DNA from: Escherichia coli
GTDB lineage: Bacteria > Pseudomonadota > Gammaproteobacteria > Enterobacterales > Enterobacteriaceae
Assembly: GCF_003334405.1 (NCBI RefSeq)
Contig: NZ_QOWM01000007.1
Direction: 5' to 3' (one strand)
Length of the DNA stretch: 64,000 bases
The notes under the pieces: generated by a model
Told to the model about the DNA's origin: nothing
The model's database searches: none
The model's input: the letters and a program-made list of their open reading frames with translations, nothing else
In this document: one piece after another, positions 1,950-64,000 of the stretch
How the letters are laid out: the number at the start of each line of letters is the position of its first letter
How positions within the stretch are numbered: position 1 is the first letter of the stretch
Program-made: the position numbers and the translations under genes

Positions 1950-3284
1950 ATGAATAATGACAATACCGATTACGTGAGTAATGAATCAGGGACGCTTTCG
2001 CGATTATTTAAACTACCTCAGCATGGGACCACCGTCCGCACAGAATTGATTGCGGGGATGACCACTTTTTTAACCATGGTGTACATCGTTTTTGTGAACC
2101 CGCAAATCCTCGGCGCGGCACAAATGGACCCGAAAGTGGTGTTTGTTACCACCTGTTTGATTGCCGGTATCGGCAGTATTGCGATGGGGATATTTGCTAA
2201 CTTACCCGTGGCGCTGGCTCCGGCAATGGGGCTGAACGCCTTCTTTGCCTTCGTGGTCGTGGGGGCGATGGGCATCTCCTGGCAGACCGGGATGGGCGCA
2301 ATATTCTGGGGCGCAGTTGGACTATTTTTGCTCACGCTGTTTCGTATCCGGTACTGGATGATCTCCAACATTCCCTTAAGTTTACGTATTGGTATCACCA
2401 GCGGAATTGGATTATTTATCGCCTTAATGGGATTAAAAAATACTGGCGTTATTGTCGCCAATAAAGACACGCTGGTGATGATTGGCGATTTAAGTTCTCA
2501 CGGCGTGTTGTTAGGTATTTTAGGGTTTTTTATTATAACCGTGTTGTCATCACGTCATTTTCATGCCGCGGTGCTGGTTTCTATTGTGGTGACGTCTTGC
2601 TGTGGATTATTTTTCGGTGATGTTCATTTTAGCGGCGTCTATTCCATTCCGCCTGATATTAGCGGCGTCATTGGTGAAGTAGATTTGAGCGGCGCGTTAA
2701 CACTTGAACTCGCCGGTATCATTTTCTCCTTTATGCTGATCAACCTATTTGATTCATCAGGAACATTAATTGGTGTAACTGATAAAGCGGGCTTAATAGA
2801 TGGTAACGGTAAATTCCCCAATATGAATAAGGCGCTGTATGTTGATAGCGTCAGTTCGGTGGCGGGTGCGTTTATCGGCACCTCGTCTGTTACTGCCTAT
2901 ATTGAAAGTACTTCTGGTGTGGCAGTCGGTGGCCGCACGGGGCTGACTGCGGTTGTGGTTGGCGTTATGTTCCTGTTGGTTATGTTCTTCTCACCGCTGG
3001 TGGCGATAGTTCCTCCTTACGCAACCGCCGGAGCGTTAATCTTTGTTGGCGTGCTGATGACTTCGAGCCTGGCGCGCGTTAACTGGGATGATTTTACCGA
3101 ATCGGTGCCTGCGTTTATTACCACGGTGATGATGCCCTTTACTTTCTCGATCACCGAAGGGATTGCACTCGGCTTTATGTCGTACTGCATCATGAAAGTA
3201 TGCACCGGGCGCTGGCGCGATCTGAACCTGTGTGTGGTGGTGGTCGCAGCTCTGTTTGCACTGAAGATTATTCTGGTGGATTAG
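1950..3284 (+). CDS. adeQ: adenine permease (NCS2/AzgA family)
   Basis: Multi-TM ORF matching E. coli AdeQ/YicO; ORF track begins at 1872 but the recalled N-terminus MNNDNTDYV starts at the ATG at 1950 (alternative ATG at 1938). Confidence 0.85.
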   Translation: MNNDNTDYVSNESGTLSRLFKLPQHGTTVRTELIAGMTTFLTMVYIVFVNPQILGAAQMDPKVVFVTTCLIAGIGSIAMGIFANLPVALAPAMGLNAFFAFVVVGAMGISWQTGMGAIFWGAVGLFLLTLFRIRYWMISNIPLSLRIGITSGIGLFIALMGLKNTGVIVANKDTLVMIGDLSSHGVLLGILGFFIITVLSSRHFHAAVLVSIVVTSCCGLFFGDVHFSGVYSIPPDISGVIGEVDLSGALTLELAGIIFSFMLINLFDSSGTLIGVTDKAGLIDGNGKFPNMNKALYVDSVSSVAGAFIGTSSVTAYIESTSGVAVGGRTGLTAVVVGVMFLLVMFFSPLVAIVPPYATAGALIFVGVLMTSSLARVNWDDFTESVPAFITTVMMPFTFSITEGIALGFMSYCIMKVCTGRWRDLNLCVVVVAALFALKIILVD

Positions 3285-62262: not shown

Positions 62263-63084
62263 ATGTCGTGTGAAGAACTGGAAATTGTCTGGAACAATAT
62301 TAAAGCCGAAGCCAGAACGCTGGCGGACTGTGAGCCAATGCTGGCCAGTTTTTACCACGCGACGCTACTCAAACACGAAAACCTTGGCAGTGCACTGAGC
62401 TACATGCTGGCGAACAAGCTGTCATCGCCAATTATGCCTGCTATTGCTATCCGTGAAGTGGTGGAAGAAGCCTACGCCGCTGACCCGGAAATGATCGCCT
62501 CTGCGGCCTGTGATATTCAGGCGGTGCGTACCCGCGACCCGGCAGTCGATAAATACTCAACCCCGTTGTTATACCTGAAGGGTTTTCATGCCTTGCAGGC
62601 CTATCGCATCGGTCACTGGTTGTGGAATCAGGGGCGTCGCGCACTGGCAATCTTTCTGCAAAACCAGGTTTCTGTGACGTTCCAGGTCGATATTCACCCG
62701 GCAGCAAAAATTGGTCGCGGTATCATGCTTGACCACGCGACAGGCATCGTCGTTGGTGAAACGGCGGTGATTGAAAACGACGTATCGATTCTGCAATCTG
62801 TGACGCTTGGCGGTACGGGTAAATCTGGTGGTGACCGTCACCCGAAAATTCGTGAAGGTGTGATGATTGGCGCGGGCGCGAAAATCCTCGGCAATATTGA
62901 AGTTGGGCGCGGCGCGAAGATTGGCGCAGGTTCCGTGGTGCTGCAACCGGTGCCGCCGCATACCACCGCCGCTGGCGTTCCGGCTCGTATTGTCGGTAAA
63001 CCAGACAGCGATAAGCCATCAATGGATATGGACCAGCATTTCAACGGTATTAACCATACATTTGAGTATGGGGATGGGATCTAA
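62263..63084 (+). CDS. cysE: serine O-acetyltransferase
   Basis: 273-aa ORF with C-terminal hexapeptide repeats. Confidence 0.96.
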   Translation: MSCEELEIVWNNIKAEARTLADCEPMLASFYHATLLKHENLGSALSYMLANKLSSPIMPAIAIREVVEEAYAADPEMIASAACDIQAVRTRDPAVDKYSTPLLYLKGFHALQAYRIGHWLWNQGRRALAIFLQNQVSVTFQVDIHPAAKIGRGIMLDHATGIVVGETAVIENDVSILQSVTLGGTGKSGGDRHPKIREGVMIGAGAKILGNIEVGRGAKIGAGSVVLQPVPPHTTAAGVPARIVGKPDSDKPSMDMDQHFNGINHTFEYGDGI

Positions 63085-63096
63085 TGTCCTGTGATC

Positions 63097-63133
63097 GTGC
63101 CGGATGCGATGTAATCATCTATCCGGCCTACAG
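63097..63133. repeat. REP element between convergent cysE and trmL
   Basis: gtgccggatgcgatgtaatcatctatccggcctaca matches the REP consensus (GCCGGATGCG ... ATCCGGCCTACA). Confidence 0.7.
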
Positions 63134-63136
63134 TAA

Positions 63137-63610
63137 CTAATCTCTCAATACCGCTCCCGGATACCCCAACTGCCGCCAGGCTTCATACACCACTACCGAC
63201 ACCGCATTGGACAGATTCATGCTGCGGCTGTCCGGCACCATCGGAATGCGAATTTTTTGTTCAGCGGGCAGGGCATCAAGAATGCTCGCTGGCAGGCCGC
63301 GTGTTTCCGGGCCGAACATCAGATAATCGCCATCCTGATAGCTTACGGCGCTGTGAGCAGGTGTACCTTTCGTGGTGAGGGCGAACAGGCGCTGGGGATT
63401 TTCTGCTTCGAGGAACGCGCGATAGTCATGATGACGCGTAACGGCGGTAAACTCGTGATAGTCCAGCCCCGCGCGGCGCAGGCGCTTATCGTCCCAGGCA
63501 AATCCCATCGGTTCGATGATATGCAGACGAAAGCCGGTATTAGCGCAAAGACGGATGATGTTGCCAGTATTTGGCGGAATTTCTGGTTCGTAAAGTACGA
63601 TGTTTAGCAT
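63137..63610 (-). CDS. trmL: tRNA (cytidine34/5-carboxymethylaminomethyluridine34-2'-O)-methyltransferase
   Basis: 157-aa SPOUT-family ORF starting [27 protein letters not shown]. Confidence 0.93.
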
Positions 63611-63667
63611 ACTGCCCCCTTAGTGCGGGGGCAGGATAGCAGAAAATTGGTGAGCAGTGCGGCCTTT

Positions 63668-63799
63668 TCCCCTCACCCCGGCCCTCTCCCCGGAGGGGCG
63701 AGGGAGAAAAAAAGAGTGCGGTGTCGTTTCAGAGTGAGGGAGTACATACAGCGCCGAACGGTCCCCTCTCCCTGAGGGAGAGGGTTAGGGTGAGGGGGC
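63668..63799. repeat. GC-rich compound imperfect palindrome (CCCTCACCC / CCCTCTCCC units)
   Basis: cccctcaccccggccctctccccggaggggcgagggag ... tcccctctccctgagggagagggttagggtgaggggg; the two blocks are inverted relative to each other and each is internally palindromic; lies between trmL and lldD. Confidence 0.6.
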
Positions 63800-63807
63800 G
63801 CAAACGA

Positions 63808-64000
63808 CTATGCCGCATTCCCTTTCGCCATGGGAGCCAGTGCCGCAGGCAACTCTTTACCCAGCCCCTGCACCAGCGAATCTTGCGTAATTTCGCTGAT
63901 CGATTTCGCGCCAGTCAGCGTCATCGCCACTTTCATCTCTTTTTCGATCAGATTTAGCAGGTTAGCTACACCCGCCTGGCCCGCTGTTGCCAGCGCATAC
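63808..64000 (-). CDS. lldD: L-lactate dehydrogenase (FMN-dependent), 3' end only, truncated by the window edge
   Basis: Minus-strand translation ends ...[53 protein letters not shown]-stop, the LldD C-terminus. Confidence 0.85.

Follow-up and report, generated by a model that had tools for sequence, protein, structure and literature searches.

Short GC-rich palindromes that recur between genes are known from several described families in Escherichia coli, and the family closest to the locus reported here is the one whose motif was once called "BoxC", then PIT elements (potential intrastrand triplex), and which was later renamed TMECO (Holder et al. 2015, PMC4666352; the sources of the family are Bergler 1992 and Bachellier, as these are cited in Holder 2015, and Hoyne and Maher 2000). 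The TMECO consensus is given as CCCTCNCCC-N3-6-GGGNGAGGG-N3-GGGNGAGGG (Holder et al. 2015, PMC4666352), with a C-rich block ahead of two G-rich ones, and the third block, which is G-rich, reads GGGTGAGGG. For triplex formation, the published circular dichroism (CD) and NMR data come only from in vitro work on single-stranded family oligonucleotides (Holder et al. 2015, PMC4666352). In earlier work, PIT elements were inactive as promoters and terminators, showed no other activity and had no in vivo effect on replication. A literature search for later work on the function of BoxC, PIT or TMECO elements returned only reviews in which the 2015 paper is cited.

Two further groups invite comparison. 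REP elements (also PU, and the BIMEs) resemble BoxC in that they are short, GC-rich intergenic palindromes, often located in 3′ UTRs or between convergent genes, and in that they are targets of IS insertion; as RNA, their hairpins stop 3′-to-5′ exonucleases and define mRNA 3′ ends. BoxC differs from REP in its unrelated sequence, its extra third G-rich block and its copy number (approximately 23, compared to approximately 300-500 for REP). The second group is that of the Rho-associated protective 3′ stem-loops: Rho-dependent transcripts have been found to end just past stable stem-loops without U-tracts, which block PNPase and RNase II and have rut sites just downstream (Dar and Sorek 2018, PMC6061677). 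Sites of this kind have in common a stable stem-loop lacking a U-tract, a steady-state RNA 3′ end that follows it by a few nucleotides, C-rich sequence thereafter and a bicyclomycin-sensitive region.

The inverted BoxC pair at the lldD-trmL junction

The window (the whole 64-kb stretch of E. coli DNA that was analysed) matches E. coli K-12 at 100% identity, as its reverse complement. Coordinates were converted to those of K-12 (NC_000913.3) as follows: window position = 63610 + 3781215 - K-12 coordinate. The K-12 annotation, mapped onto the window, agrees with the initial annotation on the gene context, with lldD followed by trmL and both genes co-directional on the minus strand, and contains no repeat feature in the lldD-trmL spacer (K-12 RefSeq). 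The spacer, its borders and the elements within it are listed below.

63808-63810, minus strand: stop codon (TAG) of lldD, from the mapped NC_000913.3 annotation and the sequence; upstream border of the spacer
63611-63807: lldD-trmL intergenic spacer, 197 bp in K-12
63137-63610, minus strand: trmL, from the K-12 annotation mapped onto the window
63764-63797, plus strand: right block, BoxC/PIT/TMECO #17, type A, no mismatch, adjacent to lldD (TMECO pattern and Table 1 of Holder et al.)
63669-63704, minus strand: left block, BoxC/PIT/TMECO #18, type B, one stem mismatch, adjacent to trmL (TMECO pattern and Table 1 of Holder et al.)
63670-63693, plus strand: tandem 12-bp direct repeat within #18, CCCTCACCCCGG / CCCTCTCCCCGG (direct-repeat search)
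63705-63763: spacer between #18 and #17, 59 bp
63749-63763: type-A 5′ flank within the 59-bp spacer, cagcgccgaacggtc (flank conservation over the 23 K-12 copies)
63705-63719: type-B 5′ flank within the 59-bp spacer, a T-run on the minus strand (flank conservation over the 23 K-12 copies)
63731-63742: degenerate BoxC-like fragment within the 59-bp spacer, AGAGTGAGGGAG, of the GAGTGAGGGAG type (direct repeat)

The left block (63669-63704) has the sequence CCCCTCACCCCGG CCCTCTCCCCGGAGGGGCGAGGG and, when read on the minus strand, is parsed as CCCTCGCCCC-TCC-GGGGAGAGGG-CCG-GGGTGAGGGG (element #18). The right block (63764-63797) has the sequence CCCTCTCCCTGAGGGAGAGGG TTA GGGTGAGGGG, parsed as CCCTCTCCC-TGA-GGGAGAGGG-TTA-GGGTGAGGGG (element #17). 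The two are mutually inverted, with 22-nt arms at 63669-63690 and 63776-63797 that are 86% complementary, and each block also has a hairpin of its own, that of the right block being a perfect 10/10 inverted repeat (63764-63773 and 63775-63784). The locus had been described in the initial annotation as two inverted GC-rich blocks approximately 60 bp apart, each internally palindromic, and this description stands, with a measured gap of 59 bp.

Exact matches to the TMECO consensus are located at 63670-63704 (minus strand) and 63764-63796 (plus strand), with no others in the window. The pattern CCCTCWCCCNNNCCCTCTCCC, searched with up to two mismatches, also has two matches in the 64-kb window, one per strand and both at this pair. 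Because each pattern has two matches in the window while neither CCCTCWCCCNNNCCCTCTCCC nor the TMECO pattern has any in 100 dinucleotide-preserving shuffles, a chance origin is excluded.

Both blocks correspond to entries in Table 1 of Holder et al. 2015 (PMC4666352): #17 is a type A element at 3781061-3781028 (window 63764-63797, plus strand), and #18 is a type B element with one mismatch at 3781121-3781156 (window 63704-63669, minus strand). The same authors name #17+#18 among five inverted A+B pairs (Holder et al. 2015, PMC4666352), and the second loop, which is TTA in the right copy (type A) and CCG in the left (type B), agrees with such a pairing. As the blocks coincide with these entries in both sequence and coordinates, the feature is, at the level of sequence, an already catalogued BoxC/PIT/TMECO pair, comprising copies #17 and #18 of the 23 in K-12. 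It shares with the family the three-block consensus, the TTA/CCG loops, the intergenic position, the set of approximately 23 K-12 copies, the inverted A+B pairing and the variability between strains; nothing essential sets it apart, its peculiarities being that it faces outwards and has a 59-bp spacer. Membership in a less-described repeat family, one of the options in the initial annotation, was thus the correct one. The same source was right that the element is not a typical REP or ERIC: it shows no relationship in sequence to the REP consensus (a palindrome of the GCCGGATGCG...CTTATCCGGCCTAC type), of which no example was found in 63660-63810, and assignment to REP or ERIC was rejected. The element, the family and even both copies are published, which removes the finding from the unknowns and leaves it little value as a discovery.

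The genome-wide search for further copies that had been proposed at the outset identified the unit as multi-copy. A 39-nt unit taken from the right block was found in 5,409 of 5,426 complete E. coli genomes, at a median of 20 places per genome (22 in the K-12 records), and nearly all of these are chromosomal (80 of 96,341 places are plasmid-borne). All 23 published K-12 copies were recovered by pattern, and these occupy 18 intergenic loci (lldD-trmL and 17 others), of which 7 lie between convergent, 9 between co-directional and 2 between divergent genes. One K-12 copy is upstream of fabI (envM), where BoxC was reportedly first named. Across the 23 K-12 copies, conservation extends past the 36-nt core, to ...GCnCnnaCGGTC on the 5′ side and GAAcAGgcc on the 3′ side of type A, and to TTTTCT on the 5′ side of type B.

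The lldD-trmL pair is alone in K-12 in having the order <-A ... B-> (59 bp); the order in the remaining four pairs is B-> <-A, and their spacers measure 16-27 bp. Three of these inward-facing pairs (10+11, 12+13 and 7+8) have a homologous spacer of approximately 27 bp, taaatattcgcgccagtgccggcctgttc and variants thereof, and because of this shared homology a composite B-spacer-A unit of approximately 100 bp is apparently what has been repeated in those three pairs. A separate copy, BoxC #19 (K-12 3908495-3908530), falls among the 182 bp that separate pstA from pstB within the pstSCAB-phoU operon, and could influence differential expression within that operon.

Variation and ancestry of the junction

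Comparison of the junction across strains, also proposed in the initial annotation, shows that it is highly polymorphic. At least 80% of the K-12 spacer is present in only 2,715 of the 5,426 complete E. coli genomes, and at least six alleles can be distinguished, so that the locus has the variability seen in the BoxC/TMECO family.

Full pair, 197-bp spacer: K-12; roughly 22% of complete genomes, a share estimated from an even-step listing of genomes
L002, one 12-bp unit of CCCTCACCCCGG/CCCTCTCCCCGG lost, #18 reduced to a plain hairpin: O157:H7 and others; roughly 28%
L003, copy #18 alone remaining, after deletion between GAGGG microhomologies: minor
L004, both copies truncated, with a 35-bp palindrome at the centre: 797 genomes, 15%
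L005, 12-nt remnant: minor
L006, 47-bp spacer with no BoxC: 1,479 genomes, 27%

In the representative alleles, the deletions end within the 12-bp direct repeat or a GAGGG microhomology. The palindrome at the centre of L004 (approximately 590-625 in E. coli LH10-b-1), CTGTCTCTTGATCAGGAGATCTGATCAAGAGACAG, is the natural right end of ISEc13, an IS4-family element (L144, 1801-1834), in which it overlaps the transposase stop codon. The ISEc13 piece inside the pair looks like the scar of an IS end.

Outgroups were examined in a scan anchored on a TrmL motif, which covered at least 120 loci and, among the Enterobacteriaceae, a handful of outgroups (without Salmonella, Shigella and E. fergusonii). The lldD-trmL spacer of E. 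albertii is free of BoxC and differs by 2 nt from the empty E. coli allele; in Pseudescherichia vulneris and two Enterobacter species, lldD adjoins trmL across short spacers that are likewise BoxC-free. Given the near-identical E. albertii spacer and these BoxC-free outgroups, the empty spacer is most simply read as the ancestral state. Judged from the aligned alleles, the BoxC pair in K-12 is a derived gain that has been eroded by repeat-mediated deletions and IS insertion, and K-12 carries a minority allele of this derived, decaying insert. Since 27% of E. coli genomes, as well as the outgroups, lack BoxC at the junction, the pair appears to be dispensable, which argues against an important function.

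Two observations from more distant genomes may be added. Superficieibacter electus has a single BoxC-like copy at the same junction, directly 3′ of the lldD stop codon (L056, approximately 3128-3159), with the sequence CCCCTCACCC-AG-CCCTCTCCC-TCA-GGGAGAGGG; this copy could have been gained independently at the same position, or the lldD 3′ region could have been transferred. From other species, the 120 TrmL-anchored loci listed contain a single exact match to the TMECO pattern, CCCTCCCCCCTTGTGGGGGAGGGTCGGGGAGAGGG; it is in the metagenome-assembled genome of an uncultured proteobacterium (L063, approximately 7027), where it lies approximately 4 kb from trmL.

The lldD mRNA 3′ end and competing explanations

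Mapping of lldD 3′ ends had been suggested as a further check, and a published Term-seq end does fall at the pair. The positions of this end and of the adjacent RNA hairpin are as follows.

63760 (K-12 3781065, plus strand of K-12), minus strand: steady-state lldD RNA 3′ end, ...GGGAGAGGGGACC-3′ (Term-seq, Adams et al. 2021)
63764-63784, minus strand: hairpin in the lldD 3′ UTR RNA, CCCUCUCCC-UCA-GGGAGAGGG, 9 G/C-rich pairs, -18.4 kcal/mol (predicted fold of 63760-63800)

The end at 3781065 is listed as "primary" for lldD (supplementary files 1 and 3 of Adams et al. 2021, PMC7815308) and is located 4 nt past the stem of the lldD-proximal BoxC hairpin. The site has an intrinsic score of 1.32 (threshold 3.0) and a Rho score of 1.49, which is significant but modest, and RNA coverage is 338 upstream versus 232 downstream, such that approximately 69% continues (Adams et al. 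2021, PMC7815308). The 59-bp spacer is rut-like on the transcribed (minus) strand, being C-rich and G-poor by base counts (20 C versus 10 G).

Two other BoxC copies are likewise followed by a 3′ end 4-5 nt past the stem, at 3959467 (ppiC 3′ UTR) and at 164636 (after hrpB). The three coincidences compare with approximately 0.06 expected (a rough estimate, with approximately 3,110 3′ ends listed genome-wide), a count that is partial and post hoc, as the +4/+5 window was picked after the first case had been seen. At 21 other predicted positions beside BoxC copies, the Term-seq lists contain no 3′ end; many of the genes adjoining these positions may be poorly expressed. A very strong 3′ end (103,563 reads) is present at 624680 on the minus strand, in the divergent fepB-entC region (L012, K-12 624579-624680). 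This end in the fepB leader precedes BoxC #8 by 4 nt instead of following it, and a reading of BoxC as a protective hairpin leaves it unexplained.

The lldD site has both a stem-loop without a U-tract and an adjacent 3′ end, as do the Rho-associated protective stem-loops, a class defined functionally and not by sequence, so that the likeness is drawn from the hairpin, the 3′ end and the Rho score. By analogy, the lldD-proximal copy would fold in RNA into a 9-bp G/C hairpin lacking a U-tract, transcription would probably run past this hairpin and be ended in part by Rho further downstream, and 3′-to-5′ exonucleases would then trim the transcript back to the hairpin, producing the precise lldD 3′ end 4 nt past the stem. 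Trimming to a BoxC hairpin in this manner may be likened to that at REP elements and at other Rho-associated protective stem-loops. From the missing U-tract, the low intrinsic score and the Rho region, we infer that the likeliest role of the pair would be that of an exonuclease-blocking 3′ stem-loop, not a terminator. Taken jointly, an inverted BoxC pair that was gained within E. coli, that is decaying and whose lldD-proximal copy would serve as an exonuclease-blocking RNA hairpin is the best explanation of the locus, and one that we hold with considerable confidence. A weak or incidental role fits the negative assays of PIT elements, the lack of a triplex in vivo and the quarter of strains without the element.

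A terminator or insulator, one of the options in the initial annotation, would here separate the lactate-inducible lldPRD operon from trmL, and seems quite improbable. Its position between two co-directional transcription units would suit such an element, as would the apparent presence of a conserved trmL promoter just downstream, and the predicted RNA structure of the whole spacer is very stable (-87.9 kcal/mol, z -3.7); nevertheless, no U-tract follows either hairpin on either strand, and a scan for promoters and terminators returned nothing in the lldD-trmL spacer on either strand. The locus is like an intrinsic terminator in that an operon ends with a GC-rich hairpin and an adjacent RNA 3′ end, and differs in the U-tract, the score and the substantial read-through. 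The mapped 3′ end at the first hairpin does carry a Rho-dependent flag, but the intrinsic score (1.32) is below 3.0 and downstream coverage remains at approximately 69% of that upstream. PIT elements were negative for terminator activity in published assays, and a quarter of E. coli strains, together with the sister species, have a 47-bp spacer without the element. The suggestion in its original form was not borne out, and an intrinsic terminator was rejected on the hairpin without a U-tract, the score and the substantial read-through. Two other explanations concern the instability and the origin of the pair. In the proposal of Holder et al. 2015, the G-rich strand of each copy, when single-stranded during replication or transcription, folds as an intrastrand purine-motif triplex, stalls polymerases and makes the locus a hotspot of deletion and rearrangement, this instability being its main biological effect; we consider this unlikely to account for the lldD-trmL pair. 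Triplexes formed by oligonucleotides of the family are very stable in vitro (Tm 70-82°C), and TMECO loci were more variable than control loci among 56 strains (Holder et al. 2015); at lldD-trmL, both copies keep all three blocks intact, and by inspection of the sequence the triplets of copy #17 are all permitted (G.G:C, A.A:T, T.A:T). However, duplex DNA gave no sign of a triplex, nor did DMS footprinting in vivo, and an effect of PIT elements on replication in vivo was not seen. The alleles (at least six, with breakpoints inside the repeat blocks and both copies intact in only approximately 22% of complete genomes) are as a triplex hotspot would have them, yet the breakpoints are also explained by ordinary slippage at the 12-bp tandem repeat and the GAGGG microhomologies, and the high diversity may merely reflect a gained, non-essential insert that is segregating in the population. 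Triplex formation at most contributes to local instability.

The least probable of these explanations, and a very doubtful one, is that the pair is a MITE-like element moved by a transposase or recombination system encoded elsewhere. Several properties would be expected of such an element: the copies are multiple and strictly intergenic, with flanks conserved past the 36-nt core; the arrangement is palindromic; the E. albertii spacer and 27% of E. coli genomes lack it, while the distant S. electus has a BoxC-like copy at the same junction; and homologous spacers recur in three of the other K-12 pairs, as though a composite unit of approximately 100 bp had been copied. However, there is no target-site duplication around the pair or around single copies (the flanks of the pair are ...CCTTTT and GCGCAA...), and between filled and empty alleles 20-40 nt of flanking sequence has been exchanged, which is not what a clean insertion would leave. 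This flank replacement and the missing target duplication make cut-and-paste transposition look unlikely. In addition, the 80 plasmid-borne places are few among 96,341, no link to transposons, phages or plasmids was found by Holder et al. 2015, and no cognate transposase is known. A miniature inverted-repeat element had been offered in the initial annotation, and this option fared no better than the terminator: with neither a target-site duplication, a clean empty site nor a partner transposase, it was rejected.

Returning to the exonuclease-blocking hairpin, BoxC elements more generally may act in a REP-like way, with a Watson-Crick hairpin that sets and protects the 3′ ends of Rho-terminated mRNAs (the lldD, ppiC and hrpB copies); we offer this generalization tentatively, as something a little short of probable. 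That BoxC hairpins and mapped mRNA 3′ ends fall together is the only mildly new point, and it offers a testable hypothesis on lldPRD mRNA stability and on read-through into the trmL promoter region. If the generalization is true, gain or loss of BoxC at lldD-trmL would alter the stability of the lldPRD mRNA between E. coli lineages.

Neighbouring elements around trmL

The stretch that includes the trmL start codon, a -10-like sequence and a hairpin (63608-63641) is the downstream neighbour of the pair and lies outside the repeat.

63608-63610, minus strand: trmL start codon
63609-63619 / 63627-63637, minus strand: arms of a GC hairpin over the trmL Shine-Dalgarno sequence, abutting the ATG, CUGCCCCC...GGGGGCAG (inverted repeat)
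63633-63641, minus strand: extended -10-like sequence TGCTATCCT, upstream of the trmL hairpin

The hairpin has a predicted folding energy of -19.9 kcal/mol (z -3.6). Both it and the -10-like sequence are kept, with compensatory changes in the stem, in E. albertii, Citrobacter, Enterobacter, Pantoea, Yersinia and Photorhabdus, and the stretch could be a conserved promoter discriminator or translational control element. The trmL cloning primer begins at GCACTAAGG. In the Term-seq data, the trmL hairpin is followed at once by a 3′ end, at 3781218 (window 63607), with a Rho score of 3.68.

A permissive Rfam search of 63000-64000 returned, over the repeat, only meaningless sub-threshold microRNA and snoRNA matches and no family. 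Elsewhere in this interval, the REP-derived family naRNA4 gave a sub-threshold match of 26.2 bits at 63093-63128, not over the BoxC pair. A canonical REP palindrome, GCCGGATGCG...CATCTATCCGGCCTAC, is present at 63098-63131, between the convergent genes cysE and trmL.
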